From the IMG/VR virus record IMGVR_UViG_2563366951_000002, positions 1 to 45,042 of that record: a DNA stretch of 45,042 nt. One strand, written 5' to 3'. This DNA comes from a virus. Lineage: Duplodnaviria; Heunggongvirae; Uroviricota; Caudoviricetes. A program made the position numbers and the translations under genes. The notes under the pieces are model-generated. The model worked only from the letters and a program-made list of their open reading frames with translations, had not been told where the DNA came from and did not search any database. This document shows, one piece after another, positions 1,331-44,475 of this stretch (position 1 is its first letter; every line of letters begins with the position of its first letter).

Positions 1331-1345
1331 GCTTTTTTATACTAA
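1331..1345. other. attL core (common core O of lambda att)
   Basis: GCTTTTTTATACTAA flanked on the left by host attB half (tgaagcct) and on the right by lambda P' arm (gttggcattataaaaaagcattgc...). Confidence 0.9.
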
Positions 1346-1390
1346 GTTGGCATTATAAAAAAGCATTGCTTATCAATTTGTTGCAACGAA

Positions 1391-1422
1391 CAGGTCACTA
1401 TCAGTCAAAATAAAATCATTAT
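1391..1422. promoter_or_regulatory. Int arm-type binding sites P'1-P'3 in the P' arm
   Basis: caggtcactatcagtcaaaataaaatcattat matches the lambda P' arm-type site cluster as recalled. Confidence 0.6.
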
Positions 1423-2489
1423 TTGATTTCAATTTTGTCCCACTCCCTGCCTCTGTCATCACGATACTGTGATGCCATGGTGTCCGACTTATGCCCGAGA
1501 AGATGTTGAGCAAACTTATCGCTTATCTGCTTCTCATAGAGTCTTGCAGACAAACTGCGCAACTCGTGAAAGGTAGGCGGATCCCCTTCGAAGGAAAGAC
1601 CTGATGCTTTTCGTGCGCGCATAAAATACCTTGATACTGTGCCGGATGAAAGCGGTTCACGACGAGTAGATGCAATTATGGTTTCTCCGCCAAGAATCTT
1701 TTTGCATTTATCAAGTGTTTCCTTCATTGATATCCCGAGAGCATCAACATGCAATGTTGTTGGGATGGCAATTTTTACGCCTGTTTTGCTTTGCTCGACA
1801 TAAAGATATCCATCTACGATATCAGACCACTTCATTTCGCATAAATCACCAACTCGCTGCCCGGTAACAACAGCCAGTTCCATTGCAAGTCTAAGCCAAC
1901 ATGGTGATGATTCTGCTGCTTGATAAATTTTCAGGTATTCGTCAGCTGTAAGTCTTGATCTCCTTACCTCTGATTTTGCTGCGCGAGTGGCAGCGACAGG
2001 GTTTGTTGTTATATGGCCTTCAGCTATTGCCTCTCGGAATGCATCGCTCAGTGTTGATCTGATTAACTTGGCTGACGCCGCCTTGCCCTCGTCTATGTAT
2101 CCATTGAGCATTGCCGCAATTTCTTTTGTGGTGATGTCTTCAAGTGGAGCATCAGGCAGCCCCCTCCTTATTGCTTTAATTTTGCTCATGTAATTTATGA
2201 GTGTCTTCTGCTTGATTCCTCTGCTGGCGAGGATTTTTTCGTAGCGATCAAGCCATGAATGTAACGTAACAGAATTATCACTGTTGATTCTCGCTGTCAG
2301 AGGCTTGTGTTTGTGTCCTGAAAATAACTCAATGTTTGCCTGTATTGCTTCAGTAATTGCTATCCTCCTGTCTCTGCCTAATCCGAACTCTTTACCCGTC
2401 CTTGGGTCCCTGTAGCAGTAATATCCATTGTTTCTTATATAAAGGTTAGGGGGTAAATCCCGGCGCTCATGACTTCGCCTTCTTCCCAT
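1419..2489 (-). CDS. int: Tyrosine integrase, lambda Int type (356 aa)
   Basis: ORF translation MGRRRSHERRDLPPNLYIRNNGYYCYRDPRTGKEFGLGRDRR... recognised as lambda Int; ATG at 2487-2489; adjacent to attL; overlaps xis 3' end as in lambda. Confidence 0.95.
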   Translation of the reverse strand: MGRRRSHERRDLPPNLYIRNNGYYCYRDPRTGKEFGLGRDRRIAITEAIQANIELFSGHKHKPLTARINSDNSVTLHSWLDRYEKILASRGIKQKTLINYMSKIKAIRRGLPDAPLEDITTKEIAAMLNGYIDEGKAASAKLIRSTLSDAFREAIAEGHITTNPVAATRAAKSEVRRSRLTADEYLKIYQAAESSPCWLRLAMELAVVTGQRVGDLCEMKWSDIVDGYLYVEQSKTGVKIAIPTTLHVDALGISMKETLDKCKKILGGETIIASTRREPLSSGTVSRYFMRARKASGLSFEGDPPTFHELRSLSARLYEKQISDKFAQHLLGHKSDTMASQYRDDRGREWDKIEIK

Positions 2490-2685
2490 TTCTGATCCTC
2501 TTCAAAAGGATACCTGTTATTGGTCGATTTAAGTCAACCTTTACCGCTGATTCGTGGAACAGATACTCTCTTCCATCCTTAACCGGAGGAGGGAATATCC
2601 TGCACTCGCGTACCCATCGACGAACTGTTTCAAGGCTTCTTGGGCGTCGCTGGCGTGCGTTCCACTCCTGAAGTGTCAAGTACAT
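2467..2685 (-). CDS. xis: Excisionase Xis (72 aa)
   Basis: Internal ATG at 2683-2685 gives MYLTLQEWNARQRRPRSLETVRRWVRECRIFPPPVKDGREY..., recognised as lambda Xis; GGAGA Shine-Dalgarno 7 nt upstream; the track ORF 2467-2892 continues in frame upstream without a stop. Confidence 0.85.
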   Translation of the reverse strand: MYLTLQEWNARQRRPRSLETVRRWVRECRIFPPPVKDGREYLFHESAVKVDLNRPITGILLKRIRNGKKAKS

Positions 2686-2992
2686 CGCAAAGTCTCCGCA
2701 ATTACACGCAAGAAAAAACCGCCTGATGGCGGTTTTGTGTTCTTTCAGTTCTTCAATTCGAATATTGGTTACGTCTGCATGTGCTATCTGCGCCCATATC
2801 ATCAAGTGGTCATAGCAGTCGTTGAAGTCCTCTGCTTCGATAACCCTGTTGAATGGTTCTCCATTCCATTCACCTGTGACTCGAAAGTGCATTTATCATC
2901 TCCATAAAGCAAAACTCGCCGTAGCGAGTTCAGATAAAAGAAATCCCCGCGAGTGCGAGGATTGTTATTCACCTTTAACGGCAAGTTGCAGG

Positions 2993-3793
2993 TTAGCCAC
3001 GGTTTACCTCCTGCGGCGGTTCCGGTAGCGGCATCCAGTGAGTTGCCTGCTCAATATCATTACCAGGCTTAATCGTTGCATCTCCGCGCCGAAAGGTGCT
3101 TCCGGTATAGCGTGCGGAGCATATTAGCGGTTCAACCAGAGAGCTATCGAAATTCACCGAAATAAGCACGTTCTGGCCCTTTTCAGGCATTCGCTCACTA
3201 CAGCTTATCCAACCATCCGGAGTTACCGGATAGTTGCCACCCTGAACAGTAGGCATATCCGGACCTTTGCGAATCGCCCTGGCAAGATCGATTTGGTCGT
3301 CGTACAACCAGTCACCTGTTTGCGGATGATTGGCTTCTGCCAATTGTGCAGCCCATTCAAGGCCGTCTTTGTGACCTTGCAGATAGTCCAGCGGTAACTC
3401 ATCACTATTACTTACAGGTTCGGCCTGAAGCATGGCGGCGCGATAGGCGTTCCAGCCGACAGCTTTTCCGTGTTCAAACGCGCTGTCAAAGTCATCATCA
3501 ATTTCCATCGCAGCGGGCACAGATACCGGCGCTGGCGGGGCGGTGTAGAGCGGCATTACCTCAATATTGAAGATATCCCCCTCGCTTGGACACGCCTCTG
3601 CGCTACCGTAAACCCAAGGGTGAACGACTCCGTTACGCTTGTTGATTAATCTGTGCGCCCACGCCACAGGCTCCGCTTCGAGCGATGCCAGCGCGATACG
3701 CGCCAGCGCCGAAGCCTCACCGCATTGAACGTGGTCAGTTTCGATAATTTGCTGTAACTGCTCTTTGGTGAATTCTCTGGTAATAGTGCTCAT
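2993..3793 (-). CDS. DUF551-like early-region protein (266 aa)
   Basis: ORF from track; C-terminal region (WISCSERMPEKG...THWMPLPEPP) resembles DUF551 proteins common in prophage early-left regions; same strand as int/xis. Confidence 0.6.
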   Translation of the reverse strand: MSTITREFTKEQLQQIIETDHVQCGEASALARIALASLEAEPVAWAHRLINKRNGVVHPWVYGSAEACPSEGDIFNIEVMPLYTAPPAPVSVPAAMEIDDDFDSAFEHGKAVGWNAYRAAMLQAEPVSNSDELPLDYLQGHKDGLEWAAQLAEANHPQTGDWLYDDQIDLARAIRKGPDMPTVQGGNYPVTPDGWISCSERMPEKGQNVLISVNFDSSLVEPLICSARYTGSTFRRGDATIKPGNDIEQATHWMPLPEPPQEVNRG

Positions 3794-3803
3794 AGGTTAG
3801 TCC

Positions 3804-3980
3804 TCAGTATCCAGAGTACGCGCGGAGTGATGCTATTCTCGCGGTGATATCATTGATGATTTCCTCCACTACCTCTGCGTGCTCATGTTCATCACGCAAG
3901 ACATCAAGGGCGCTGTCTATTTCACGGAGCATATCCTGCTGCCATTCAATATCTTCTGATTCCGGGATTTCGTATTTCAT
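3804..3980 (-). CDS. Small hypothetical protein (58 aa), not in the ORF track
   Basis: ATG at 3978-3980 immediately after the upstream gene's stop, TGA at 3804-3806; translation MKYEIPESEDIEWQQDMLREIDSALDVLRDEHEHAEVVEEIINDITARIASLRAYSGY; fills an otherwise uncoded gap in a tightly packed operon. Confidence 0.4.
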   Translation of the reverse strand: MKYEIPESEDIEWQQDMLREIDSALDVLRDEHEHAEVVEEIINDITARIASLRAYSGY

Positions 3981-3982
3981 GC

Positions 3983-4327
3983 TTACTCCCCTTTACCGGC
4001 TGCGGTGACGTTGATGCCAGCGTTATCACAGGCGATGCGGAATGCCTCTTGAAGTTCTCGCGCAACGTGTGGCACATAGCCGTCGAAGGTTGGCATTTCG
4101 ACAGTCTTCTTTTCTGCGGCTTCCAGCTCATCCAGCAGCGCCAGCACGGTAGTGGGGTTTGCTGCGGAGTTCAGCGCGTTCAAGGCAGTGATATCTGCAT
4201 CAAGCTGAGTTCCTTCTGCCAGTGAGATATCGAAAATGTCATCAGGCGGCATAACACTAAGGAGCTCATGTGCGCCAACTGCTGCCGCTGCGATTTCACG
4301 CAGCGCCTGTTTGTCGATGTTGCTCAT
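3983..4327 (-). CDS. Hypothetical early-region protein (114 aa)
   Basis: ORF from track; same strand and tight spacing with neighbours in the leftward early operon. Confidence 0.55.
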   Translation of the reverse strand: MSNIDKQALREIAAAAVGAHELLSVMPPDDIFDISLAEGTQLDADITALNALNSAANPTTVLALLDELEAAEKKTVEMPTFDGYVPHVARELQEAFRIACDNAGINVTAAGKGE

Positions 4328-4596
4328 TGGGCGGTTCCTTCGTAACCGATGGCTTCTGCAATTTCAGCAAGTGTCTCTGCACTTTCACCCACTGGCTCAT
4401 TCATCCAGTCGAAGGAAACAAGCTTACCGCCTTCGATAACGCCGATGTTGAAATCATCACTACCTTGTGTTTTCAGACCATGCTTGATTGCCTTATCGCG
4501 CTTATCGAAGTCAACGCCGTCTGTCGTGTATTCAACTCCATGGCCTTTCTCGTTGCACCACCAGTACTGCTGAATAACGATGTATGATTTTCTCAT
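4324..4596 (-). CDS. Hypothetical early-region protein (90 aa)
   Basis: ORF from track; 4-nt overlap with flanking genes suggests translational coupling. Confidence 0.5.
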   Translation of the reverse strand: MRKSYIVIQQYWWCNEKGHGVEYTTDGVDFDKRDKAIKHGLKTQGSDDFNIGVIEGGKLVSFDWMNEPVGESAETLAEIAEAIGYEGTAQ

Positions 4597-5225
4597 GACT
4601 GCACTCCTTTGCGAATTTGGTAGGCATGGACGCGCATTATGTCGATTGCCTTCGATGTGACAGGATGCTGATGGTTCATCATCGCAATGACTGTGTTAAT
4701 CGCTGAATCCACACCCTGCGCCCGCACTTCAGCCAGAAAAGCATCGGTGGCTGGGGTTTTGTTATCTGACTCCAGCCACTGGTTGTAGTAATAATCGAAC
4801 ATGCCAGTAGGATAACCACATCCGCTGTGCACGTGGTCTTTCATAGCAGAACCACACATGCAGTAGTCATTGTCAGTATTACTAATGATGTCGATAAGTT
4901 GCTGTGTCCGTTGCTTCAACATCGCATTCTCCGCCGCCAGCGCCGAAAACTTCTCGTGTGCCAACTTAACAGCTGCATCAGCCTGCTTAATTGACTCAGT
5001 CGCTTTCTGGTGGTCTTCGGCCAGCCCTGCTAAATCAGCCTCCAGTTCGGCTAGGCGTTCATTTAATGCATCTCGTTCATCCAGTAGAGCCAGCACAACC
5101 TGAGGTGTGACTTTCATACGAAATGCCAGCAATTTTTGAGGTGTTGCTACTGTTTCAATTGCTACTGCTGCCTCACGCAGTACCTGATAGTCAATCTTGC
5201 TCACTGGTTGCCTCCTTTGCGCCAC
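4593..5225 (-). CDS. Hypothetical coiled-coil protein with Cys/His-rich C-terminus (210 aa), possibly Ead/Ea22-like
   Basis: ORF from track; central Ala/Glu/Leu-rich heptad-like segment; C-terminal CMCGSAMKDHVHSGCGYP cluster; family assignment is by recall only. Confidence 0.55.
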   Translation of the reverse strand: MAQRRQPVSKIDYQVLREAAVAIETVATPQKLLAFRMKVTPQVVLALLDERDALNERLAELEADLAGLAEDHQKATESIKQADAAVKLAHEKFSALAAENAMLKQRTQQLIDIISNTDNDYCMCGSAMKDHVHSGCGYPTGMFDYYYNQWLESDNKTPATDAFLAEVRAQGVDSAINTVIAMMNHQHPVTSKAIDIMRVHAYQIRKGVQS

Positions 5226-5384
5226 ATCGCATTCAGATATTTGTTGTCATTAACAGAACCGAAACTATTTCTCTTAAGCAATTACTCTCTCGATGGCATT
5301 GGCTTTACGCGTTGGCGAATAATCATTTCTGCCGGAAGAATGCCGGGATTGTATGCAAGTCCTCTCATGGTAAATTCCTCTTTG

Positions 5385-5699
5385 TTAATTTATTCGTATG
5401 CCTGCTCTTTCTTCATCGAGTTTTTTTAGCTTGTATCGCATAGCTCTTACTGAATAAATTGAGCGGCAGGTTGCAATTGCTATTTCTTCTGCGGAGAACT
5501 TACCGAAAAGTGATACTTCGGCTCTTGTCCATCGTCTTCCACGAAGTCTGCTAACAATGTCAGCGCCAATCCTTGTTGCTTTCGCCATTACTGCTTTTTC
5601 AGTCCTTTCCAGTTTTTCAGCGATAACTTCAACTGGCATTGTCGCCGCTACTTCGCGCAAGAAATCGACTTCCCATTTCTCCCAAGGAGTCTTTTTCAT
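5385..5699 (-). CDS. Hypothetical protein (104 aa)
   Basis: ORF from track with ATG start; basic protein in the early-left operon. Confidence 0.5.
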
Positions 5700-5710
5700 A
5701 GGCGATACCG

Positions 5711-6193
5711 TTATTTGATAAGAAGTGAAGGTTTCCCAACCTTGAGTTGAGCACCGGGGATATTTATTCCTGCTTTTAGTTGGTGTTTGATTGCCAGTTT
5801 GTCGGCTTTAATTGTCGTTTCAAACTCAACGTATTCAGGAGGAAGGGCGCTTGAGTCGATTATTTCTACAATTTCTGACGGTTTGCGGATTGTTACCTGG
5901 TGAATACCTGCTCGAATCTTTTTCTTGCCAACCATTTCAAGCGATGACGCTATATACGCCATAATGCTGTCAATCTTATTTTGAATTACTGCGGCTCGCT
6001 CATTTAGTGACTTTGCCTCTTCCTTGAGGCGTTCAGCATAACCAGATTCATTTTTAATAATGGCAAGAAGTTGTTCTATTTTATCGGTAAATTCTCCTTC
6101 CATGCCTTCTATTGTGTCAGCAATCATCTCTGGCTCTAAATCTGAATCCATCAGCTTTGCGTATTCATTGGCTATTTCATACAGTTTGCTCAC
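5711..6193 (-). CDS. Gp157-family protein (siphovirus Gp157-like), partner of RecT
   Basis: Track ORF 5711-6199 starts at TTG; GTG at 6191-6193 has GGAGG 6 nt upstream; translation (P)VSKLYEIANEYAKLMDSDLEPEMIADTIEG... resembles Gp157 proteins found beside recT. Confidence 0.6.
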   Translation of the reverse strand: MSKLYEIANEYAKLMDSDLEPEMIADTIEGMEGEFTDKIEQLLAIIKNESGYAERLKEEAKSLNERAAVIQNKIDSIMAYIASSLEMVGKKKIRAGIHQVTIRKPSEIVEIIDSSALPPEYVEFETTIKADKLAIKHQLKAGINIPGAQLKVGKPSLLIK

Positions 6194-7088
6194 TGGCAAC
6201 CTCCAGTTTCGCTTTGCATTCTGCGTAAATGGCTTGTACGTTCTGCTGCAATTTCATTCCAGATGTCAGGCGATATGCTTCTGCAAAATATCGCTTCAAA
6301 TCATCCATGTTTTCAGCATGAGCCATTTCATCACAAAGAAGTTGTGCTTTATCCGTTATTTCCTGCTGGCGTTTCCTTTCATCTTCGCGGATATCTTCCT
6401 CTGATTTGTGCGGCATAACTGGTTCAGTCCACACACCTTCTTCTTCGTTTAGTACGTGAATAGCACTATCAAGACGTGATGCCTTAGGCCAATACTTGCT
6501 TGCACGCTTTACGACAGTCTTTCGCGCCATCTCATTCCAGTGATTTACCCATGGTCCTTTATCGCTGAATGCTGCCTTGCTTGTTTTCCTTACAGCCTCA
6601 ATTTCAGCCAGACTCATCTCTTCCGTTAGATAATCACCTGCTGGCGTCTTAACTGTGCAGTAAACGCCAACAATATCACCACGATCACCGAAGGCGTTGT
6701 ATTTATGGGTTGGTGCTTTATCAAGCCCGTTTGACTCATAGTTATCGTTAGCATGAACAATTTTTGCCTGACCCCATGAGATAACACCAGACTCCATTGC
6801 AATATGGAGCAATCCCATATAACTGATATCAAGGCACACCATGCCGTCGCGCGGAACCAGATAAGCCAGTTTGCTGGCCGGGTTTAAGGTGATACCGATC
6901 GCCGCAACATTGATGATGGCGTTCTGTGCGCTGGTTGGATTTGCCAGTGCTGTTTTAGCCAGGTAATCATTTTTCTGGAAATACTGAATTGCAAACTGGC
7001 TTTCCTTAGCCCATGTCACCGTCTGTTCAGTCAATGCTCCGCAGAATAACTGCTCTTGCTGTTTAACGAATTCAACGATATTGCTCAT
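6177..7088 (-). CDS. recT: RecT-family single-strand annealing recombinase (303 aa)
   Basis: ORF from track, ATG start; length and sequence character recognised as RecT family; sits where lambda bet would be. Confidence 0.8.
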   Translation of the reverse strand: MSNIVEFVKQQEQLFCGALTEQTVTWAKESQFAIQYFQKNDYLAKTALANPTSAQNAIINVAAIGITLNPASKLAYLVPRDGMVCLDISYMGLLHIAMESGVISWGQAKIVHANDNYESNGLDKAPTHKYNAFGDRGDIVGVYCTVKTPAGDYLTEEMSLAEIEAVRKTSKAAFSDKGPWVNHWNEMARKTVVKRASKYWPKASRLDSAIHVLNEEEGVWTEPVMPHKSEEDIREDERKRQQEITDKAQLLCDEMAHAENMDDLKRYFAEAYRLTSGMKLQQNVQAIYAECKAKLEVASEQTV

Positions 7089-7396
7089 GCTGCTTCTCCA
7101 TAAACGTGTCTGCGTTTGAATATTGCGAAGGCATATTCAGCCTTAACTCTTTCGGTTATTGCATCCCAGAACCATTCAGCGGCTTTTTCCTGATAGTTAC
7201 AGTCATCATCTTCCAGCCAGTCGATAGCGTCCTTAGTGTGTTCATCTGGTTTATATGAGCGAAGCATTTCGCTTATTGGGTCGCAACGTTTGCAGAGGCG
7301 ATCAACTTCACTGTTGATTCGTTCGTAATCTTCATCAGTAAAACTTGCGATAATTTGCGATATTTCACGCTTATCATTCAGAGTCAGAATCATCAT
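7085..7396 (-). CDS. Hypothetical acidic protein (103 aa)
   Basis: ORF from track; ATG start overlapping recT stop. Confidence 0.5.
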   Translation of the reverse strand: MMILTLNDKREISQIIASFTDEDYERINSEVDRLCKRCDPISEMLRSYKPDEHTKDAIDWLEDDDCNYQEKAAEWFWDAITERVKAEYAFAIFKRRHVYGEAA

Positions 7397-7477
7397 CTTT
7401 CTCCTGTTCTTTGTGCTGATTGAGCATTTTGTTCATCTGACGAATGAATTCTTCGTCTGACCAGTTATCTGTAAAAC

Positions 7478-7648
7478 TCATGGACGGCCTTGTTGTTTCA
7501 AAATATCCCAAAGCTTTTCGAGAAAACTTTTCATTCTTGGTTGTTTAAAGTCTGCTCCGGTTAAAATATTTTTTCGTGAATGCTGTACCGATAAAATCGG
7601 GTTGAAAGGGCGAACCGATGCCGCCCCTGCAATAGCGAACTGTTGCAT
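7478..7648 (-). CDS. cIII: CIII-like protein (FtsH inhibitor homologue, 56 aa)
   Basis: Internal ATG at 7646-7648 with AAGGAG 5-6 nt upstream; MQQFAIAGAASV...KLWDILKQQGRP resembles lambda CIII (MQYAIAGWPVAG...KRLIDILNQPG); the longer track ORF 7478-7753 would run through an upstream terminator hairpin. Confidence 0.65.
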   Translation of the reverse strand: MQQFAIAGAASVRPFNPILSVQHSRKNILTGADFKQPRMKSFLEKLWDILKQQGRP

Positions 7649-7710
7649 AGGATGCTCCTTCTGTTTGATTGCATAACGAAAACGCCTCAAGTGAAGCGTT
7701 ATTGATATGC

Positions 7711-7738
7711 ATATAAAAAGGCCCTCACACTGGAGGGC
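7711..7738 (-). terminator. Intrinsic terminator in the leftward early operon (tL-like)
   Basis: On the minus strand: stem GCCCTC/GAGGGC with 6-nt loop followed by CTTTTTATAT. Confidence 0.5.
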
Positions 7739-7833
7739 AAAGAAGATTTCCAATAATCAGAACAAGTCGGCTCCTGTTTAGTTACGAGCGACATTGCTCC
7801 GTGTATTCACTCGTTGGAATGAATACACAGTGC

Positions 7834-8037
7834 TTATTCGCGAGCTTTGAGCATTGCGTCTGCAAACTTATATGCAGCGCTTGCTGCATAATTAACAGCT
7901 CCATCAGAATCATTATCGATAATCGATGGATTGCTAATCATTGCTTGCATAGCCTTTGCCGCGAAGTAATCACGTAATGTCGCATCACTTGCCATTTCTG
8001 GGCGTTTGATATCTGCTTCATAAAACTCGCACATCAT
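7834..8037 (-). CDS. Hypothetical small protein (67 aa) between N and cIII
   Basis: ORF from track; 4-nt overlap with the upstream gene. Confidence 0.5.
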   Translation of the reverse strand: MMCEFYEADIKRPEMASDATLRDYFAAKAMQAMISNPSIIDNDSDGAVNYAASAAYKFADAMLKARE

Positions 8038-8327
8038 TCACCTCCCAGAGCCTTGCTGATTGCTGCAAGACCTTTATTAACAGCTCCATACCATTCTGGA
8101 TATGTTGTCGTTGTTCTATTTTTGGTTTGCTTAAGTAATAACTGAAGTGCTTCGAGAAGGTCAGGAGCTGCTGCTATCAGTAGCGCATCCTCCATTTCAT
8201 TTCTTGTTGCTACTTCAATGTATGTGTCACCAATCGTCACACCATGGAACGTAGTCATCATCTCGTTGACGTTTCTAACCGTGTACTTCCATTTACCAGG
8301 CGTACCCTTAAACTCTTTCATATTCAC
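8034..8327 (-). CDS. Hypothetical protein (97 aa) between N and cIII
   Basis: ORF from track, ATG start. Confidence 0.5.
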   Translation of the reverse strand: MNMKEFKGTPGKWKYTVRNVNEMMTTFHGVTIGDTYIEVATRNEMEDALLIAAAPDLLEALQLLLKQTKNRTTTTYPEWYGAVNKGLAAISKALGGE

Positions 8328-8375
8328 CTCTGTTGTTTATGCCAAAAGAAGGCCGACTATGCGGCATAATTATTT

Positions 8376-8564
8376 TTAACTATCATCAATACATGGCACT
8401 TTATTCCAGTCGATATCGTTTTTATTGTCGTCCCACATGTCTTTGTTTTTGTATTTCTCGCTACATCCTAGGCAAATGTTGTATGGCCTACCGATAAGGT
8501 TTAACGAAATACGTTGCATTTCATTTGATTCAAACATGTATCCACAGAACTGACATTTATGCAT
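8376..8564 (-). CDS. Small zinc-ribbon-like protein (62 aa)
   Basis: ORF from track; two CxxC pairs (CQFCG ... CLGC) spaced as in a zinc ribbon. Confidence 0.5.
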   Translation of the reverse strand: MHKCQFCGYMFESNEMQRISLNLIGRPYNICLGCSEKYKNKDMWDDNKNDIDWNKVPCIDDS

Positions 8565-10069: not shown

Positions 10070-10125
10070 ATCCTTATTATTACGCTCTGTACTAAAACCA
10101 TCCATGCACAAGATGTATTTTTTGT

Positions 10126-27316: not shown

Positions 27317-27327
27317 GGAACAGACGA

Positions 27328-37426: not shown

Positions 37427-37840
37427 ATGAAAATCATTACTTACACGCAAATGCGATCGGATTTATCTGCAACGCTGGACTGTTTACGCTCTGGTGAAAG
37501 CGTCACAGTTACGCAGCGCGGAAAGCCCGACCTTGTCATCAGTGCAAAATCAGTTGATGAAATCGCTTCCGCAGATGAGGTAAAAACATCTGCGAAAACA
37601 ATAGACACGCATCTTGCGCAATTAATTGCATCGAATTTGTCACCACAGATAACGGAGGGTGTCATGAAGCTTACTAAGCAATTGGATGCCCTTCTTCAGT
37701 CTGATGAGGCTCGCCAGACTATGATGAAGGCCACTAATGCAGCAGTTGCTTTGCAGGGCGTGTCTGAGTCATTTATCAAAGCTCTGCAACATACTCAGAC
37801 CAAGCATGCGGACATCATAAAAAAACTGGAAGATAAGTAA
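37427..37840 (+). CDS. Phd/YefM-type antitoxin with extended C-terminal region (137 aa)
   Basis: ATG at 37427 with GAGAGGG upstream; N-terminus MKIITYTQMRSDLSATLDCLRSGESVTVTQRGKPDLVI has Phd/YefM character; stop overlaps the toxin start (TAATG). Confidence 0.65.
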   Translation: MKIITYTQMRSDLSATLDCLRSGESVTVTQRGKPDLVISAKSVDEIASADEVKTSAKTIDTHLAQLIASNLSPQITEGVMKLTKQLDALLQSDEARQTMMKATNAAVALQGVSESFIKALQHTQTKHADIIKKLEDK

Positions 37841-38247
37841 TGACTGAGATTACATTCCTTTCGGTAGATGAGGTCATCGCTATTCAGAAGAGCACATTGC
37901 CAAATAGCGGACAACCAGACCGGGGAAAACTCGAAGGTGCCCTCAATCGCGTCGATAACTTACGCATGTATGAAGGATGTGAGGATTTATTTAAATTTGC
38001 AGCTATGTACATGGTTGCGATAGCGAAGTCTCACGCTTTTAATGACGCCAATAAGCGAACGGCTTTCCAGGCCGCCAGCGTGTTTTTGCTTTTGAATGGC
38101 TATGAACTGAATACCTCAATGGAGTTAGTCAAGCTGACCATCTTTGCTGCTACGGGAGAGGCCGACTGCGATAACACTGCTTTGGCGCTTAAACTTTTGT
38201 CAGATTATAAGAATGAGCTGCTGGCAGATACGATAACTGGCTACTGA
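37840..38247 (+). CDS. doc: Doc-family toxin (Fic/Doc fold, 135 aa)
   Basis: Motif HAFNDANKRTA matches the Doc signature as in P1 Doc (HIFNDANKRTA); translationally coupled to the upstream antitoxin. Confidence 0.8.
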   Translation: MTEITFLSVDEVIAIQKSTLPNSGQPDRGKLEGALNRVDNLRMYEGCEDLFKFAAMYMVAIAKSHAFNDANKRTAFQAASVFLLLNGYELNTSMELVKLTIFAATGEADCDNTALALKLLSDYKNELLADTITGY

Positions 38248-38270
38248 TAGCAAAAAGTAAATTGTACACA

Positions 38271-38295
38271 ACCCGCCGCCGAGCGGGTTTTTTTA
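38271..38295 (+). terminator. Intrinsic terminator after the toxin gene
   Basis: Stem ACCCGC/GCGGGT with 6-nt loop followed by TTTTTTTAT. Confidence 0.65.
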
Positions 38296-38305: not shown

Positions 38306-39043
38306 ATGCCAATTCCAACTCAATCACAGATCGGCGGTGAGCAGCAGACCGCGCAGGCCATTGCCGATTCGGTGTCGACCCAGATGCGCGTAGCGATGCC
38401 CGGCATCATTCAGTCGTTCGATCCTGAGACTGTTACCTGCACAGTAGAGGTGGCGCTACGCGGTATTGTTGGCGACGGCTCCACCGAATTAAAACCGCTG
38501 GTGGATGTGCCGGTTATCTTCCCGCGCGGTGGCGGTTGCACACTGACCTTTCCGGTTAAAGAAGGCGACGAGTGCCTGCTGATCTTTGCCGACCGTTGCA
38601 TCGATTTCTGGTGGCAGAGCGGCGGCGTTCAGGAGACCGTCGACCCGCGTCAGCATGATTTATCGGATGCGTTCGCCATCGTTGGCCCGCAGTCGCAAGC
38701 ACAAAAAATCGGTGGAATCAGTACCGGAGCAACGCAGCTGCGCAGCGACGATGGGAGCACGTATTTTGAGCTCAACCCCACCACGCAGAAAATTAAAATT
38801 GTAGCGCCAGGCGGCCTGGATGTTATCGCGCCTGAATCGACATTCTCAGCGAAGGTAACGATTACCGGTCTACTCACCTGGATGGGGGGGATGGTCGGCA
38901 GTCTTGCCAGCGGAACAGCGGCGAAAATTACTGGTGCGATTGAATTCTTTGGGACGCTTAAATCTAACGGTAAATCTATTGATGACACGCACACCCACAA
39001 AGGCGTTCAGACGGGTAGCGGCAATTCTGGTGGGGTAAACTGA
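38306..39043 (+). CDS. Putative baseplate spike/hub protein (gpV/Gp138-like, 245 aa)
   Basis: ORF from track; position in baseplate block; family by recall. Confidence 0.5.
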   Translation: MPIPTQSQIGGEQQTAQAIADSVSTQMRVAMPGIIQSFDPETVTCTVEVALRGIVGDGSTELKPLVDVPVIFPRGGGCTLTFPVKEGDECLLIFADRCIDFWWQSGGVQETVDPRQHDLSDAFAIVGPQSQAQKIGGISTGATQLRSDDGSTYFELNPTTQKIKIVAPGGLDVIAPESTFSAKVTITGLLTWMGGMVGSLASGTAAKITGAIEFFGTLKSNGKSIDDTHTHKGVQTGSGNSGGVN

Positions 39044-39396
39044 TGCGATACCGACGAGAAGATGCTGACGGCGATTACACTTTCGGGCAGGGTGACGACA
39101 CCTTCCTTATCGACAGCCCGGAGTGTGTCGCCCAGGCCGTAAAAACCCGTTTCGAGCTGTGGCGCGGTCAGTGGTTTCTCGATCTGACGGAAGGCACGCC
39201 GTATGTTCAGTCAGTGCTTGGGAAGCAGCGATCAGATGTCTACATCCTGGCTATACGCGAACGCATACAGGATACACCGGGCGTTCTGTCGATTCTTTCC
39301 TTCGATACCAATTATGACGGCACCAGCCGTCGCGTCACCTTCACTTCCTCCATTGACACAATCTACGGCCAGACGACTGTAACAAGCGAGGCATAA
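39043..39396 (+). CDS. Putative baseplate protein (117 aa)
   Basis: ORF from track; ATG overlaps upstream stop. Confidence 0.5.
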   Translation: MRYRREDADGDYTFGQGDDTFLIDSPECVAQAVKTRFELWRGQWFLDLTEGTPYVQSVLGKQRSDVYILAIRERIQDTPGVLSILSFDTNYDGTSRRVTFTSSIDTIYGQTTVTSEA

Positions 39397-40596
39397 ATGG
39401 CTTTGAACCTCGACACGCTGGGGCTATCGGCAACGGTAACCGCCCAGGGGATTAGTGCGCCTGATTACCAGACAATCCTTGATACACTGACCAGCTATTT
39501 CAGGCAGATTTACGGTAGTGATGCCTACCTCGAACCAGACAGCAAAGACGGGCAGATGGTCGCGCTGGTGGCTCTTGCCGTGCATGACGCGAACAATACT
39601 GCTATCGAGATCTACAACTCGTTTTCACCGACGACAGCGCAGGCCGCAGCGCTTAGCAACAATGTGAAAATTAACGGGATCACGCGAAAAGTAGCGACAA
39701 ACTCTACTGCTGACCTTCTGTTAACCGGTACGGCAGGCACGACTATCACGAATGGCTCCGCACGGGATAAAAACGGCATTATCTGGAATTTTCCCGCAAG
39801 TGTAGCGATCGGCGTTGATGGTACTGTGCTGGTGACGGCCACATGTGCGAATAGCGGTTCGGTTGCGGCGCTGGCCGGGACTATTACCACTATCAACACC
39901 CCGACCCGAGGTTGGGTGTCGGTAACCAATCCAGTTGCGGCTACTGTCGGTTCACCAGCCGAAACCGACGCAGAGCTGCGCATTCGGCAGGGGCAAAGCG
40001 TCGCGCTACCATCGATCACACCGTTTGAAGGTGTCGACGGTGCTATCGCTAATGTTGCTGGCGTGACACGTCACAAACTATATGAGAACGACACTGGGGC
40101 AACCGACAGCAACGGGCTGCCGCCACACTCTATTTCCGCCATCGTCGATGGAGGGGATGTTACCGAGATAGCCCAAACAATCCGGGGGAGTAAAGGGCAG
40201 GGAACCGCAACTTACGGTAAAACTTCTGTCACGGTGCCGGATACTTACGGTAATCCACACGTCATCAGTTTTTCGCGCTCTACCGATGTGCCAATTTTCG
40301 TAGCCATTACCCTGAAAGTTTTTACCGGCTATACCTCTCAAATCGGCGAGCAGATTAAACAGGCTGTTGCCGATTATATAAATGGCCTAACAATTGGCGA
40401 CGACGTTCTGCTGAGCCGTATTTATTCCCCGGCAAACCTCGGCGTTGTGAGCGGCGGGAATGCCCGCTATTACGACATTACCGAACTGCTGATCGGTAAG
40501 TCGTCTGGCAGCGTATCGGCATCAAATATTGATATTGCCTATGATGCTTCGGCGTCCTGTAGCACCGCGAATATCACAATCACGGTGACCTCATGA
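39397..40596 (+). CDS. Putative baseplate J-like protein (399 aa)
   Basis: ORF from track; size and position typical of baseplate J/gp47-like proteins. Confidence 0.5.
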   Translation: MALNLDTLGLSATVTAQGISAPDYQTILDTLTSYFRQIYGSDAYLEPDSKDGQMVALVALAVHDANNTAIEIYNSFSPTTAQAAALSNNVKINGITRKVATNSTADLLLTGTAGTTITNGSARDKNGIIWNFPASVAIGVDGTVLVTATCANSGSVAALAGTITTINTPTRGWVSVTNPVAATVGSPAETDAELRIRQGQSVALPSITPFEGVDGAIANVAGVTRHKLYENDTGATDSNGLPPHSISAIVDGGDVTEIAQTIRGSKGQGTATYGKTSVTVPDTYGNPHVISFSRSTDVPIFVAITLKVFTGYTSQIGEQIKQAVADYINGLTIGDDVLLSRIYSPANLGVVSGGNARYYDITELLIGKSSGSVSASNIDIAYDASASCSTANITITVTS

Positions 40597-41273
40597 GCAA
40601 ATACACCGAACTGATCACTAACTACCACGCTACCAAGCCACTCTTTTTTGACCATATAGATCTGAGCACCCGCCCGTTGATTGATGTGTCCAGCACTATG
40701 TCAGGACTTGTAACAGCCTTTGATATAGATACGGCGGTCGGCGTACAGCTCGATACCCTCGGTCTGTGGATTGGGCGTAGTCGTATAGTCAGCCAGCCAA
40801 TTAGCGGCGTTTATTTCAGCTGGGACACTGACGGGCTCGGATATGACCAGGGGGTATGGCAGGGACCATACGATCCTGATTCAGGATACATGTATCTCAG
40901 CGATGAAACTTATCGTGTCATTCTTAAAGCGAAGATTGCGATTAATAACTGGGACGGACGGAATGATTCGCTTCCAGTAATTCTTGACGCGGCAACAGCA
41001 GGATCCGGGCTGCGAATGCAGATAGTCGATAACCAGGACATGACGATATCGGTCTGGGTCTTTCCTGATACTGATATTTCAGATGTATCGCGTGAGTTAA
41101 TTGCCGCAATTAAACAGGGCTATCTCACCGTAAAAGCAGCTGGCGTATGGGCCGGTGATGTGGAAACGCCTTCGGTAGAAACACCGTCTGAAGGCACTAA
41201 ATTTTTTGGGTTTGATATGGACAACGAATATATCGGCGGTTTTGATACCGGCGCTTGGGGGGTATTACTCTAA
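40593..41273 (+). CDS. Putative tail protein (226 aa)
   Basis: ORF from track; precedes the tail fibre gene. Confidence 0.5.
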   Translation: MSKYTELITNYHATKPLFFDHIDLSTRPLIDVSSTMSGLVTAFDIDTAVGVQLDTLGLWIGRSRIVSQPISGVYFSWDTDGLGYDQGVWQGPYDPDSGYMYLSDETYRVILKAKIAINNWDGRNDSLPVILDAATAGSGLRMQIVDNQDMTISVWVFPDTDISDVSRELIAAIKQGYLTVKAAGVWAGDVETPSVETPSEGTKFFGFDMDNEYIGGFDTGAWGVLL

Positions 41274-42211
41274 TGGCAACAAATAACTTCAAAGCGTTCG
41301 CGCTTGATCCTAACGCTAATGTTACGCCACAAGCTGACTGGGAGGCGCTACCGACACTACTATCAGGATTTACTTCAGGTAAGGCATCAAGTGCGCAGGT
41401 GAATAAAGCGCTTAGACAGTCGTTGTTTATTGCTTCTACCTTGGCTGAATTTGTATCAACGACACTGAATACGGATATCCTTGATGATGGTGATGTCACT
41501 GGGTTCGTGAGTAAATTGACATCTGCATTACAATTAAATTCTCCAGGGCGTCTCATTAATATTCAGACTATCACTACTTCAGGAACGTACACAAAAACAC
41601 CTGGTGCGAAGCATGCTTTAATTCGTGCAGTAGGAGGGGGGGCAGGTGGTGGCGGGGCTCCTGCCACTTCATCAACGACTCAGTCAACAGCAAAAGGTGG
41701 GGAATCTGGCGCTTATATTGAAGCGTATGTTGATCTAAGTTCTGTGACTTCTTTATCTGCAATTATTGGTGCTGGTGGAGTTGGAGCCATTGCTGGCAGT
41801 AATAGCGGGACATCTGGCGGAACGACTTCCTTAGGGAGTCTAATTTCATGTCCAGGTGGTGAGCCTGGAATTGGTGGGAATACCAGCGCAGCAAGTTTTG
41901 TATCATCTGACAGGGCATCAAATAAAGCGCCAATGTCAACAGGCATGATTTTGGTTTCAACGCCAACATCGTTACCAAACCTTGGCCGCGTAGCAAATCC
42001 ATCAGCTCCTACTGTTGGTGGTACCGGTGGATCTAATCCTTTAGGGATGGGGGGGGCTGCTGGAGCTGCGGTACCAGGAACACCTACATTACCGACAAAT
42101 GGAAGTGGCTATGGTAGTGGGGGAGGGGGAGGCGTATCAGTTGGAGGGATGTCTGCAATGGGCGGTGGTAATGGTGCGCCTGGAATTATTATCATCATGG
42201 AGTATGCGTAA
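41273..42211 (+). CDS. Tail fibre protein with glycine-rich C-terminal region (312 aa)
   Basis: ATG at 41273 (TAATG overlap with upstream stop; track ORF starts 41255); C-terminal Gly-rich repeats (GGGAGGGGAP, GGTGGSNPLGMGGAAGAA); followed by a fibre assembly gene. Confidence 0.65.
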   Translation: MATNNFKAFALDPNANVTPQADWEALPTLLSGFTSGKASSAQVNKALRQSLFIASTLAEFVSTTLNTDILDDGDVTGFVSKLTSALQLNSPGRLINIQTITTSGTYTKTPGAKHALIRAVGGGAGGGGAPATSSTTQSTAKGGESGAYIEAYVDLSSVTSLSAIIGAGGVGAIAGSNSGTSGGTTSLGSLISCPGGEPGIGGNTSAASFVSSDRASNKAPMSTGMILVSTPTSLPNLGRVANPSAPTVGGTGGSNPLGMGGAAGAAVPGTPTLPTNGSGYGSGGGGGVSVGGMSAMGGGNGAPGIIIIMEYA

Positions 42212-42603
42212 TGAAATATGCAGTCATTGAAAACGGGAATGTTATAAACATTATTGAACTAGATGATTCAGAAATGCTTCCTGGAACCGAGTTAGAAATT
42301 ATACCTGAAGGTGAAGTTGTAGATATAGGCTATAAGTGGGTTGGAACGACATTTGAACCTCCACCAAAGCCAGATCTGACTGACACAGAACGCCTGGAAT
42401 TAATTACGATTCAGAGAGATGAGCGGATTTCAGCTGCTTTAAACTATGTATCATTTAACAACCTAAATGCAAAATTGTTGCTAAATATGCTTTCTGATGA
42501 GGAAAAAAACCTTTACGCTTCAATAATTAAATACGTTGATACACTTAGGGGTATGCAGTTCAATTCTTTATCTGAAATAAAGTGGCCTGCTCTCCCGTAC
42601 TAG
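42211..42603 (+). CDS. Tail fibre assembly protein (Tfa-like, 130 aa)
   Basis: MKYAVIENGNVINIIELDD... and position after the fibre gene with TAATG coupling. Confidence 0.65.
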   Translation: MKYAVIENGNVINIIELDDSEMLPGTELEIIPEGEVVDIGYKWVGTTFEPPPKPDLTDTERLELITIQRDERISAALNYVSFNNLNAKLLLNMLSDEEKNLYASIIKYVDTLRGMQFNSLSEIKWPALPY

Positions 42604-42642: not shown

Positions 42643-43686
42643 TTACCCTGTAAATATGCTCATGATTATCTTTGAAGCGCGTTTACTTTCAAGGTGGCTA
42701 GATATCATTTTCACTAATTTTACTTGTGAATACACAACTAATAATGCAAGTGTATAAGTTACAATAAATGTTATCACAAAGTTTAAACTGAGTTTGTGGC
42801 ACATTAATATGAATAAAATGTGCCACAGATAAAGCCATATTGAGTTTTCTGAAGTAAATTTGACAAGTGTCCATGCAACAGTATTTTTTAAGCGAGCCAC
42901 AATGGCATCAGCATATAAATAAACCAGTGTGCTAACGAATACAGCATAGGATAAATAGTAAATCCCCGGGGGGTATTTATCAATTTGTGTTGGGATAAAG
43001 GAATTATCTACAAAGTAAAAATCAATAACTAAGAAAAAGAACAGGGACGCAGAACAAATAATCAACAGTAAAATTTGCTTTTTGTCTAAACTCATTAGTT
43101 TATAGCCGATTAAAAATACAAACATATAAGGTATAGTGTTTGCAATATAGGAGCCGATGAGAACCATTTTGTTCATTTCGTCAAGCTCTTTATAGAAACT
43201 TTTGAATTGACTATTAATAATTACGGTGAGAGCAAAAAAAGATAGTAGATACAACATTCTTGCATTGAGTAATTTCTTTGGTAAGAATATCGCAATTGTC
43301 GAAATTATGAAAAAAAGCCTTATAACCCAAACATATCCCAATCCGCTAGATAACGTAAATGAGGTAATTATATGCCCTTGTGGATAAGTGAAGTTTTTAA
43401 TATTAAATGCTAAGGCAAGACATTCATTTATTACGAAGAAAAAACCAAAGAAAATCCATGTAGGAAGAACTAATCGACGAAAGCGCGAGGCGATATAACC
43501 TAGTTTGTCTTTATGTCTTTCCTCTGTCACATAAAATGACATTCCCATGACCATAAACATTAAAGGTACATCGAAGTTACGCAGTTGAGCTAGCCATAAA
43601 GGAGGCTGGACATGGGCTAGAATGATTAGAGAAAGCCCGAGAAATCTTAAAAAATCTATTTTATCAATACGCATGACTTCGTCCAT
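42643..43686 (-). CDS. Acyltransferase-3 family integral membrane protein (O-antigen acetylase-like, 347 aa)
   Basis: ORF from track; about ten hydrophobic segments; N-terminal FLRFLGLSLIILAHV typical of acyltransferase_3; very AT-rich codon usage unlike neighbours; opposite strand to the tail genes, next to attR. Confidence 0.7.
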   Translation of the reverse strand: MDEVMRIDKIDFLRFLGLSLIILAHVQPPLWLAQLRNFDVPLMFMVMGMSFYVTEERHKDKLGYIASRFRRLVLPTWIFFGFFFVINECLALAFNIKNFTYPQGHIITSFTLSSGLGYVWVIRLFFIISTIAIFLPKKLLNARMLYLLSFFALTVIINSQFKSFYKELDEMNKMVLIGSYIANTIPYMFVFLIGYKLMSLDKKQILLLIICSASLFFFLVIDFYFVDNSFIPTQIDKYPPGIYYLSYAVFVSTLVYLYADAIVARLKNTVAWTLVKFTSENSIWLYLWHILFILMCHKLSLNFVITFIVTYTLALLVVYSQVKLVKMISSHLESKRASKIIMSIFTG

Positions 43687-44267
43687 TAGATTTTATAGAT
43701 CAACGATTATACATTAGTATTGATCGGCTATGACACCATTGCTTATAGGTATGCTCTCTGTTGTATGAGTACAGCTCAGGAGCTTCGCCTTGGTTTGTTA
43801 TAGCTTACGGTGCCGATTTACGATGTCGGAGTGCCGACACCGTATCGCAAATTCCCGGTAGGCAGTGGTTAGACACGATGCAGGCCGCCGGTGATTGTTG
43901 AGACTGGCAGCCTGCATAATTTACAGCCCAACCTGGCGAACTGTCGGGAACTCAGATACCAGCCACATATCGGCTTCTTCAAACATATCCTCGTTTCTGG
44001 TCAAGTGAGGAGTGAAAATTCATGTGCCATTTTTGTGTCACACAAGGTGAAGCATCTAACATTGTCTTGCATCATGTGCCATTAAGTTTCTTATAGTGAA
44101 TGCGGCAATGTGTATGTAAAACAGCTAGTTAAATGTGATTCTACTAATTCGTAATGCGAAGGTCATGTGACGTTACCGTCTATCCAGTACGCCCACCATT
44201 GCATCATTTCTCTGCGCTTATCGAGATACTGAGCATGGTTGTAAATTCAGCAAACGACGTAATGTGT

Positions 44268-44314
44268 TTGACAAAAAATTAGCGCAAGAAGACAAAAAAA
44301 TCACCTTGCGCTAA
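44268..44314 (-). terminator. sib/tI-like hairpin distal to int across the att site
   Basis: 10-bp perfect inverted repeat TTAGCGCAAG...CTTGCGCTAA with 16-nt loop; on the minus strand followed by TTTTTTGT; lies just beyond the P arm, where lambda places sib/tI. Confidence 0.5.
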
Positions 44315-44323
44315 TGCTCTGTT

Positions 44324-44367
44324 ACAGGTCACTAATACCATCTAAGTGGTTGATTCATAGTGACTGG
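44324..44367. promoter_or_regulatory. P-arm Int arm-type sites (P1, P2)
   Basis: acaggtcactaat and inverted catagtgactgg match the lambda P1/P2 arm-type site pattern. Confidence 0.55.
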
Positions 44368-44460
44368 ATATGTTGTGTTTTGTAGCATTATGCAGTCTAT
44401 TTTTTAGACTAAAGATATTGTAACACATTGATATTAATGTTTTTTAATGTTTCGCGTTCA

Positions 44461-44475
44461 GCTTTTTTATACTAA
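44461..44475. other. attR core
   Basis: GCTTTTTTATACTAA followed by host attB right half (cttgagcgaaacggg). Confidence 0.9.

Follow-up and report, generated by a model that had tools for sequence, protein, structure and literature searches.

The window analysed here, the 45,042 nucleotides of IMG/VR virus record IMGVR_UViG_2563366951_000002 (Caudoviricetes), carries an element in which genes resembling those of phage lambda, of P22 and of contractile-tailed phages follow one another. The question this locus raises is whether these genes belong to one temperate phage and, if so, what kind of particle that phage would build. Our analysis indicates that positions 1331 to 44475 very probably constitute a complete-looking temperate lambdoid phage genome, integrated by an Int/Xis system at the lambda attachment site of Escherichia coli (attB-lambda), with a contractile-tail virion module of the lineage of Salmonella phage SEN34. 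An earlier note, made from the letters of the sequence and its open reading frames (ORFs), had described a mosaic prophage with lambda-type integration and late control, P22-type N and nut elements, and Mu/SfV-like morphogenesis genes. Every class of gene that it named was found in the prophage, and the label given to the virion genes had to be replaced.

Integration at the lambda attachment site

The window contains just two copies of the 15-bp core of the lambda att site, GCTTTTTTATACTAA, one at 1331-1345 and the other at 44461-44475, against an expectation of zero in shuffled sequences. These two cores mark the true ends of a prophage of 43,145 bp, cores included, exactly where the earlier note had placed them. 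The left core opens attL (B-O-P'; 1331..1425, plus strand), in which the P' arm with its Int arm-type sites is identical to lambda 27724-27818 over approximately 95 bp. At the other end, attR (P-O-B'; 44269..44475, plus strand) has a P arm that matches lambda 27534-27742 with 87.7 to about 90% identity over some 210 bp, and in the alignment with lambda the arm-type sites ACAGGTCACTAATAC and TAGTGACTG are kept. The window begins within E. coli ybhC, and this left flank is 99.9% identical to many E. coli chromosomes; as judged from the flanking sequence, the prophage is at the canonical attB-lambda, between ybhC and the ybhB side.

The tyrosine integrase gene int (1419..2489, minus strand) encodes 356 amino acids that are 99% identical to lambda Int and 100% identical to HK106 Int over the full 356 residues. 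The adjoining xis gene (2467..2685, minus strand) encodes 72 amino acids, with a translation that begins MYLTLQEWNARQRRPRSLETVRRWVRECRIF; identity of the region to lambda xis is 94%. All of the elements by which lambda-type integration is recognised, namely two copies of the core, the P and P' arms, Int and the ybhC neighbour, were present, and the proposal of such integration holds, with an Xis that is essentially lambda's. The homologue of lambda orf p35 and xis form a single ORF of 141 codons (2467-2892, minus strand), the stop codon between them being absent; translation of Xis probably still initiates at the ATG of xis, at 2685. No tRNA or tmRNA gene was found by scanning, and a scan of the entire window against Rfam at the gathering score gave no families.

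A predicted contractile-tail virion module

By homology, the virion module of the prophage is of the SEN34 (Brunovirus) type. Every gene from that of the large terminase subunit (TerL) to that of the DUF2612 wedge protein has a collinear homologue in SEN34 (tblastn; 21.8-41.4 kb), mostly with 51-98% amino acid identity, and most of the packaging, head and neck proteins fall at 83-98%. At the nucleotide level, Citrobacter phage Omnitron is 96.6% identical over 21802-34199 (12.4 kb) and the E89 prophage 91-97% identical across most of 21232-41408, and the lengths of the TerS, TerL, portal, DUF2213 and capsid genes equal those of the relatives. Among proteins of known structure, the matches indicate that the solved relatives of the module are those of phages XM1 and Pam3. 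Since the gene set is that of the SEN34 lineage, with the myoviruses XM1 and Pam3 as its solved relatives, the virion is predicted to be that of a myovirus and not of a lambda-like siphovirus. Its sheath and tube genes were found in 49 of 5,426 complete E. coli genomes (about 1%).

The packaging, head and neck genes (21301..30538, plus strand) were assigned with Pfam and PHROG. They open with TerS (21301-21855; Terminase_2, a type of small subunit that predicts packaging by the headful, or pac, mechanism) and TerL (21858-23480; PHROG terminase large subunit), followed by a portal protein of family Phage_portal_3 (23480-24949), a MuF-domain minor head protein (about 24963-25571; Phage_Mu_F), a DUF2213 protease/scaffold (25586-26806; Pfam and PHROG), a cement protein of the E217 gp24/Pam3 gp6 type (26810-27316) and the major capsid protein (27328-28269; Major_capside/DUF2184), which matches Pam3 structure 8hdt at 7e-18 and also 7kmx. 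The remainder of this block (28311-30538) holds an ORF at 28311-28700, a DUF4054 gene, genes for neck proteins and that for the tail terminator, which ends at 30538.

The contractile tail genes (30542..37344, plus strand, the last ORF ending at 37344) were recognised from Pfam and solved-structure matches. The sheath (30542-31702) matches DUF3383 at 3e-104, 7kh1 at 3e-35 and Pam3 8hdr at 8e-27, and the tube (31713-32153) matches KPP10_Orf10 at 2e-59 and the Pam3 tube at 6e-10. A tail assembly chaperone (32157-32582; TAC_15), a tape measure protein of 735 amino acids with an SLT domain (32760-34967), a Dit-like protein (34967-35593; Pfam Dit_like), a Pam3-type plug (35590-35895; Pam3_gp18) and an E217-type hub (35898-36992; E217_GP41) follow. 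Near the end of the chaperone gene there is a candidate -1 programmed frameshift, T_TTT_TTG (about 32531), that would extend the product to about 32770; the -1 frame runs into a DUF6889-like ORF, which is separately annotated in E89.

The baseplate and fibre genes (38306..42603, plus strand), also assigned from Pfam and solved-structure matches, encode a spike (38306-39043; N-terminal spike domain PF18352), a small wedge protein with no Pfam match (39043-39396), baseplate protein J (39397-40596; Baseplate_J), the DUF2612 wedge (40593-41273), a Gly-rich tail fibre recognised by Pfam (41273-42211) and a fibre assembly chaperone (42211-42603; Caudo_TAP). Conservation of the fibre with SEN34 is limited to its N-terminus. 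The C-terminus of the fibre and the fibre chaperone gave no nucleotide matches in 50,697 phage records, even in distant mode, or in the 5,426 E. coli genomes.

The earlier note had assigned these genes to a Mu/SfV-type morphogenesis module placed on a lambdoid backbone, as in Shigella phage SfV, which, going by its annotation, is a true precedent for the combination of a contractile tail with a genome of lambdoid type. The prophage does encode a Phage_Mu_F-domain protein and a Baseplate_J protein, and weak tblastn matches to Mu were obtained for TerL (29% over 198 amino acids) and gp47 (27% over 171 amino acids). These were the only Mu matches among the virion genes, however; no bases of the prophage align with Mu or SfV by blastn, and its virion proteins have no tblastn matches in SfV at E<=1e-3. 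Phage_Mu_F and Baseplate_J are broad families that extend well beyond Mu. In a scan of Mu and SfV proteins against the Pfam library that was also used for the prophage (Mu gp46 was left out), these two were the only families that Mu and the prophage had in common. The Mu set comprised Portal_Mu, Mu-like_gpT, Phage_sheath_1, Tail_tube, GpP/Gp44, Mu_Gp45 and Mu_Gp48, and SfV had an HK97-type Phage_capsid. In place of a Mu-type portal with gpT or an HK97-type capsid, the prophage has Phage_portal_3 with Major_capside/DUF2184; in place of a Mu-type sheath and tube it has DUF3383 and KPP10_Orf10, neither with a tblastn match to Mu L/M or SfV orf11/12. From the Mu gp44-48 baseplate set, Baseplate_J alone is common to both (27%), the hub, the spike and the wedge at the gp48 position belonging to other families, and against solved structures baseplate protein J matches wedge proteins that include 7kh1 gp16 at 5e-16, with Mu gp47 at just 4e-6. 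With portal, capsid, sheath, tube, hub, spike and DUF2612 families all different from those of Mu, a Mu/SfV-type module is refuted at the family level, and we regard this assignment as very unlikely; the module is better described as SEN34-type.

A different kind of doubt concerns the unity of the element. At about 21.3 kb the G+C content steps from approximately 0.47-0.52 to 0.557, and the nearest relatives differ between the two halves, as if a lambdoid prophage devoid of structural genes lay side by side with a myovirus remnant or a tailocin cluster. Both halves are nevertheless enclosed by a single pair of att cores with a single integrase, and the virion genes extend the Q-pR'-lysis operon on the same strand. 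The module opens with terminase, portal and capsid genes and is therefore no tailocin, and SEN34, Omnitron, ECONIH5 and E89 all have the two halves joined in this way. We give almost no credence to two adjacent elements, and treat the prophage below as one genome.

Early control and immunity

A P22-like N protein and two P22-like boxB hairpins had been proposed from the sequence, and the comparison with known phages agrees on each. The N antiterminator (8624..9007, minus strand; 127 amino acids; Pfam N_peptide 2e-15) is 43% identical to P22 gp24 and 31% to lambda N, and both its Arg-rich N-terminus and its C-terminus match gp24; it is in fact the HK106 allele of the P22 class, with 98% identity to HK106 N. 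The putative P22-class Arg-rich motif reads GNSRSRRRERLK, against GNAKTRRHERRR in P22. Reading of the sequence placed the nutL boxB, GCGCTGACAAAGCGC, at 9173..9187 (minus strand) and the nutR boxB, TCGCTGACAAAGCGA, at 10438..10452 (plus strand). Each contains CGCTGACAAAGCG, the core sequence of nutL as annotated in P22, at 9174-9186 (minus) and 10439-10451 (plus) respectively, and has the P22 stem with a GACAA-type loop; the 13-nt core of the nutL boxB is that of P22 nutL, L004 30817-30829.

The cI-type repressor gene (9410..10105, minus strand) has Pfam matches to HTH_3 and Peptidase_S24. The protein is 70% identical to lambda cI, and its C-terminal 405 nt are 94% identical at the nucleotide level; by this comparison the resemblance of the repressor to that of lambda is confined to the C-terminal half. 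If the longest cI ORF is taken, a gap of 36 bp remains before cro, which is insufficient for the OR operators, and translation therefore probably begins at an internal Met, at about 10069-10105. Near cI are a pL-like promoter, at 9284-9256, and a terminator-like hairpin, at 9379-9358 (minus strand); this and the other terminator-like hairpins reported here are predictions of a consensus scan. On the plus strand lie a cro-type repressor gene (10181..10396; 71 amino acids; identified from its sequence and a PHROG transcriptional repressor match) and a cII-like activator gene (10537..10833; PHROG 191 at 6e-37), 99% identical to HK106 cII.

The early-left (pL) operon (2725..8564, minus strand), assigned from Pfam and PHROG matches, holds accessory and recombination genes, kil/cIII and small ORFs: a DUF551 gene (2993-3793), two Ea22-like genes (3983-4327 and 4593-5225), a Gp157/Gam-like gene (5711-6199), RecT (6177-7088) and the kil/cIII region (7374-7753), all on the minus strand. 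A terminator-like hairpin lies within it at 7738-7721 (minus strand). By blastn, the operon has blocks of 95-98% nucleotide identity in common with podovirus Louie and the ECONIH5 prophage.

Replication genes and a helicase intein

The replication module carries an O-like initiator with a DnaB-type helicase in place of lambda P, as the earlier note had read it; PHROG and Pfam matches confirm both. The initiator (11014..11904, plus strand; 296 amino acids) matches PHROG 345, 'replication initiation O-like', at 6e-84 and has 98% identity to HK106 gp51; a match to lambda O was not obtained by tblastn. The origin lies inside this gene, where six 11-bp iterons, TTGTCCAACGG, are arranged in two clusters of three at 11400-11495 and are followed by an AT-rich stretch. 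This layout of iterons within the gene is that of the lambda ori, although the iterons are shorter and more numerous than the four of 18 bp in lambda.

The helicase gene (11894..14359, plus strand; Pfam DnaB 2e-30 and DnaB_C 2e-53) is split by an intein of 343 amino acids (12563..13591, plus strand), which stands as a clean insertion relative to the HK106 helicase. The unspliced precursor would have 821 amino acids (about 92 kDa). The exteins total 478 amino acids and are 99% identical to the 478-residue HK106 helicase and 33% identical to P22 gp12. The insertion falls in the Walker-A P-loop, between Gly-Lys and Thr-Thr (GARPKMGK / AQPL...ILTHN / TTLY). It includes a LAGLIDADG homing endonuclease of the double-motif kind, recognised from Pfam LAGLIDADG_3 and Hom_end_hint matches and two LAGLIDADG motifs. 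Class 3 inteins, as defined from the DnaB intein of mycobacteriophage Bethlehem, lack Cys, Ser or Thr at position 1 and have Trp at B-12, Cys at F-4, Thr at G-5 and Ser or Thr at +1 (PMC2807308). The prophage intein has Ala1, His-Leu-Trp in block B (DDHLW), Cys at position 4 of block F (CICIMV) and a terminal Thr-His-Asn followed by Thr, so that all of these features are present, and we classify it as a class-3-type intein that is predicted to splice, as the class would do, through a branched intermediate at block F.

The intein DNA is present at >=99% identity in 18 of the 5,426 complete E. coli genomes, and in the 12 of these 18 that were listed nothing is annotated beneath it; an intein-free junction occurs in approximately 357 E. 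coli genomes. At least 12 IMG/VR prophage contigs carry the intein, and in two contigs with a divergent helicase the match is restricted to the intein and short flanks, as homing would give. The nearest inteins of isolated phages, in the primase-helicases of Stx2a phages, are 46% identical. Conditional gating has been reported for mycobacterial DnaB inteins, and the helicase intein of the prophage could place lytic replication under a conditional gate of this post-translational kind.

Compared with the Bethlehem DnaB intein, the prophage intein has the same absence of an N-terminal nucleophile, the same Trp/Cys/Thr triplet, the same Thr+1 and the same insertion in a helicase P-loop. It differs in residing in the helicase of an enterobacterial lambdoid phage.

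The nin region, late control and lysis

Late control was proposed to be lambda-like, and for Q and pR' this stands. The Q late antiterminator (17676..18299, plus strand; 207 amino acids; Pfam Antiterm 9e-58) is 100% identical to lambda Q and 97% identical to P22 gp23. The pR'/qut and tR' elements (18342..18432, plus strand) were placed by alignment with lambda and P22 and by promoter and terminator scans. The pR'/qut segment, the first transcribed bases included, is the lambda sequence with two substitutions; past pR' the sequence switches to a short P22-type tR' hairpin (18404-18432), without the longer 6S region of lambda.

The same proposal for S, Rz/Rz1 and the nin genes went too far: the holin is of the lambda family, Rz/Rz1 is of P22 type, the endolysin of SEN34/P22 type, tR' that of P22, and the nin region mixed. 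The lysis cassette (18823..20043, plus strand; assigned from translations and homology) encodes a lambda-family holin with a dual start (MKM; 18823-19146), 81% identical to lambda S, and an endolysin (19130-19579) that is 78% identical to that of SEN34 and 46% identical to P22 gp19, with no match to lambda R. Rz (19576-20043) is 78% identical to P22 gp15, and Rz1, embedded in Rz in the +1 frame (about 19805-19990, plus strand), is nearly identical to P22 Rz1. A terminator-like hairpin at 20074-20096 lies past the cassette.

The nin region (14649..17679, plus strand; PHROG matches) shares 97.8% nucleotide identity with Louie over 15086-18442. It comprises NinB (14649-15095), merely 42% identical to lambda NinB, a Dam methylase (15065-15619; Pfam Dam 8e-65), NinE (15616-15792), an ORF ending at 16196, NinF (16189-16365), two HNH endonuclease genes (16358-16867 and 16857-17135), RusA (17132-17494) and an ORF at 17491-17679, NinB, NinE, NinF and RusA being PHROG assignments and all genes lying on the plus strand. 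RusA stands in place of NinG; homologues of NinC, D, G, H and I were not detected in the region by tblastn or PHROG. The HNH genes form an adjacent pair between NinF and RusA, and the same pair is found in Louie.

Taken together, these modules suggest how the phage would operate. The cI/cro/cII switch would govern pL and pR, and N of the P22 class, acting on P22-type boxB sites, would allow the early terminators to be read through. The O-like initiator would bind the iterons in its own gene and act with the DnaB-type helicase of the phage, which must first excise the class-3-type intein from its P-loop. Lambda Q would then load at the lambda pR'/qut and carry transcription through the short tR', of P22 type, and on into one late operon, from which holin, lysozyme and spanins, and then the SEN34-lineage head and contractile tail, would be expressed.

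Mosaic structure and module boundaries

The extent of mosaicism was measured as the fraction of the 43,145 prophage bases that aligned with each phage by local blastn. Lambda accounts for 4,056 bases (9.4%), in att-int-xis, the cI C-terminus, ninE, Q-pR' and the P arm, and P22 for 2,491 (5.8%). The P22-like podovirus Louie accounts for 10,474 bases (24%), SEN34 for 17,306 (40%) and Omnitron for 20,100 (47%). Coverage of 80% of the early or the late half was reached by no phage or E. coli record searched, and the mosaic claim therefore stands; collinearity of the whole element with one characterised phage was looked for, and no such phage was found.

The earlier note had placed module boundaries at terminators or moron insertions, and a predicted terminator or a moron is indeed found at several of the breakpoints (14388-14411, 18404-18432, 20074-20096 and 38270-38289). 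A strong bidirectional terminator-like hairpin (14388..14411, plus strand) separates the replication genes from the nin region, and similarity to HK106 and ECONIH5 stops at 14426. Other blocks of similarity likewise end at or just past such hairpins, at 18434-18442 and 20099-20168, and similarity picks up again at 38270-38282, directly past the hairpin that belongs to an inserted Phd-Doc cassette. G+C content shifts with the modules: it is 0.45-0.49 in the early region, 0.557 in the head genes, 0.527 in the tail genes, 0.454 in the Phd-Doc cassette, 0.448 in the fibre region and 0.33 in the acyltransferase gene.

A conserved non-coding island before the terminase genes

Between the accessory genes and TerS lies a conserved non-coding island of approximately 250 nt (21058..21309, plus strand). 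It is 80-99% identical in 200 phage records, from P22-like and HK97/HK022-like groups, in which the flanks are unrelated, and is thus common to podovirus and siphovirus records and to this contractile-tail prophage. At its end it takes in the Shine-Dalgarno sequence, the ATG and the initial codons of the gene that comes first in the packaging module, whichever gene that is. No coding sequence is annotated under it in several of the records, and here it contains only short broken ORFs.

The predicted fold of the island is more stable than those of shuffled sequences (z = -3.7). One long hairpin has three compensatory pairs (GC-to-AU double changes) in phage Emek, which are no more than suggestive, the copies having diverged so little. 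No Rfam family matched the island, and a permissive scan gave matches at chance level only. That the island is functional and not a neutral relic, whether as a dedicated recombination linker, as a structured RNA that leads the late transcript or as both, seems to us rather doubtful; if true, it could let whole virion modules of three tail types be swapped onto lambdoid control regions.

Accessory genes

Accessory genes occupy three positions. Between the lysis and packaging genes are a KilA-N/ORF11CD3 protein gene (20195-20746, plus strand; Pfam) and an 87-codon ORF (20743-21006, plus strand; PHROG 875).

A Phd-Doc moron (37409..38289, plus strand) is inserted between the hub and spike genes and has its own terminator-like hairpin (38270-38289). 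Its Phd-like antitoxin gene (37427-37840, plus strand) scored 28.3 bits (1.5e-6) against PhdYeFM, just under the 29.8-bit cut-off. The Doc toxin (37840-38247, plus strand) matches Pfam Fic at 1.5e-11 and P1 Doc (3k33) at 7e-20. As a Doc protein was taken one with the motif HxFx(D/N)(A/G)NKR and a Phd/YefM antitoxin upstream, and the prophage protein reads HAFNDANKR. Blastn showed no counterpart of the cassette in E89, SEN34 or Omnitron, which become similar to the prophage again at 38270-38282. In the relatives the gap between hub and spike holds other small genes, and looks like a hot spot for morons.

To the right of the fibre genes, an Acyltransferase_3 membrane protein (42643..43686, minus strand; Acyl_transf_3 8e-20; G+C content 0.33) is probably an O-antigen or surface-polysaccharide acetylase moron; as with the other morons, its function is predicted from sequence homology. 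An O-acetyltransferase gene occupies the same position in SEN34. Phage records gave no matches to the acyltransferase gene, even in distant mode. Matches in E. coli are partial and come from two genomes, at 88-91% over about 600-700 nt that take in the 5' end of the gene and what lies to the right of it, and the sole close match among species-representative genomes, at the end of an Enterobacter pasteurii contig, covers residues 1-180 with 84% amino acid identity. A DinI gene at 43.7-44.1 kb, hinted at by annotations under the E. coli matches, was looked for and rejected, with no intact ORF in any frame.

When ten accessory proteins were scanned with the PADLOC defence models, matches were weak or generic only, HNH scoring as a homing endonuclease and Doc weakly. 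The helicase intein, the Phd-Doc cassette, the GC-poor acyltransferase and the structured non-coding island do not appear in the earlier note.

A complete or a defective prophage

The gene content of the prophage, its homologies, its att sites, its nut, qut and terminator sequences and the boundaries of its intein can be read directly from the DNA. Several points weigh against the conclusion that it is a complete temperate phage. Its inducibility and the contractile morphology of its virion are predictions, the latter drawn from homology to SEN34. Inspection of the sequence over 10069-10181 did not pin down the cI start codon and operators, and the helicase would be non-functional unless the intein splices. 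The tape measure gene is approximately 200 nt longer (34199-34400) than in E89, where the protein has 671 amino acids, and in SEN34; the extra length could give a slightly longer tail, and tandem repeats, considered as its source, were not found. Finally, the collections searched contain no close relatives of the fibre tip, the fibre chaperone or the acyltransferase, so that statements on host range and on the function of the cargo are guesses.

Some of these points would fit a defective, cryptic prophage, unable to excise, replicate or form particles despite its complete look. The helicase gene is interrupted by 1,029 nt under which the listed genomes carry no annotation, the cI start and operators are those just described, and the two HNH genes with the other insertions show that invasion by selfish elements is continuing. 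The interruption is, however, a clean in-frame intein with all of the class 3 catalytic residues, and its intact exteins match the HK106 helicase at 99% identity. The two att sites, int and xis are likewise undamaged, the virion genes have the lengths seen in plaque-forming SEN34 and in E89, and none of the modules showed a premature stop. A defective prophage is in our judgement improbable, and we retain the interpretation as a complete-looking temperate phage.

Comparison with known phages

Compared with lambda, the prophage is alike in attP/attB, Int, Xis, Q and pR'/qut (97-98% nucleotide identity) and in gene order and regulatory logic, and differs in N/nut, the DNA-binding half of cI, O/P, most nin genes, the endolysin, the spanins and the whole virion module. 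With P22 it has in common boxB, the class of N, tR', Rz/Rz1 and replication with a DnaB-type helicase, and with HK106, which like HK022 is one of the HK97-group coliphages, the N, cII, O and helicase alleles, at 98-99% amino acid identity. The helicases of P22, which is a podovirus, and of HK106, a siphovirus, are intein-free. The early region of the prophage is found also with P22-like podovirus (Louie) and HK97-like siphovirus (HK106) virions, and provides an example of module exchange.

The nearest virion modules are those of Omnitron and of E. coli prophages and predicted phages (vB_EcoM-611R5/683R1, E89 and ECONIH5). ECONIH5 also has the early-left operon in common, at 98%. It adjoins torS, and E89 adjoins dacD, so that the same architecture of lambdoid early region and virion module occurs at other att sites. 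The Omnitron/E89/ECONIH5 group differs from the prophage in Q, immunity, replication allele and fibre tip; the intein is absent from the regions of these genomes that were examined, and none of them covers 80% of either half.

SEN34 has a lambda-like genome, yet electron microscopy showed its tail to be long and contractile, and it was assigned to a separate cluster of lambda phages, the 'temperate 26' of Casjens & Grose (PMC5261728). It resembles the prophage in its lambdoid regulatory layout, in a syntenic head and contractile-tail module (17.3 kb at 67-84% nucleotide identity) and in an acyltransferase at the fibre-distal end. It differs in its own integrase and att site, immunity, lambda-P-type replication and Q, and is without the intein and Phd-Doc. 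An induced urinary coliphage with vB_EcoM-683R1 as its nearest GenBank relative was imaged as a myovirus, and the ICTV exemplar closest to it was SEN34, at 31%; the genus threshold is at least 70% nucleotide similarity across the entire genome (PMC12945033). For the prophage, 17,306 of 43,145 bases at 67-84% identity to SEN34 correspond to roughly 30% on that scale, which places it outside the genus Brunovirus.

These comparisons correct a label, in that contractile-tailed lambdoid prophages of E. coli are not all of SfV/Mu type, the present one being of SEN34 lineage. They are also of value for annotation, with an intein in a helicase where no feature is annotated and a Phd-Doc cassette within a baseplate operon. 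The present understanding of lambdoid phages is unchanged by our findings, and more work might be worthwhile only on the helicase intein and on the conserved island. All the blocks of a lambdoid genome, from int-xis through recombination, N, cI-cro-cII, replication, nin, Q and lysis to the virion genes, are present and in order, and the prophage is a new combination inside a described group of phages, whose architecture is already known and has been seen by electron microscopy.

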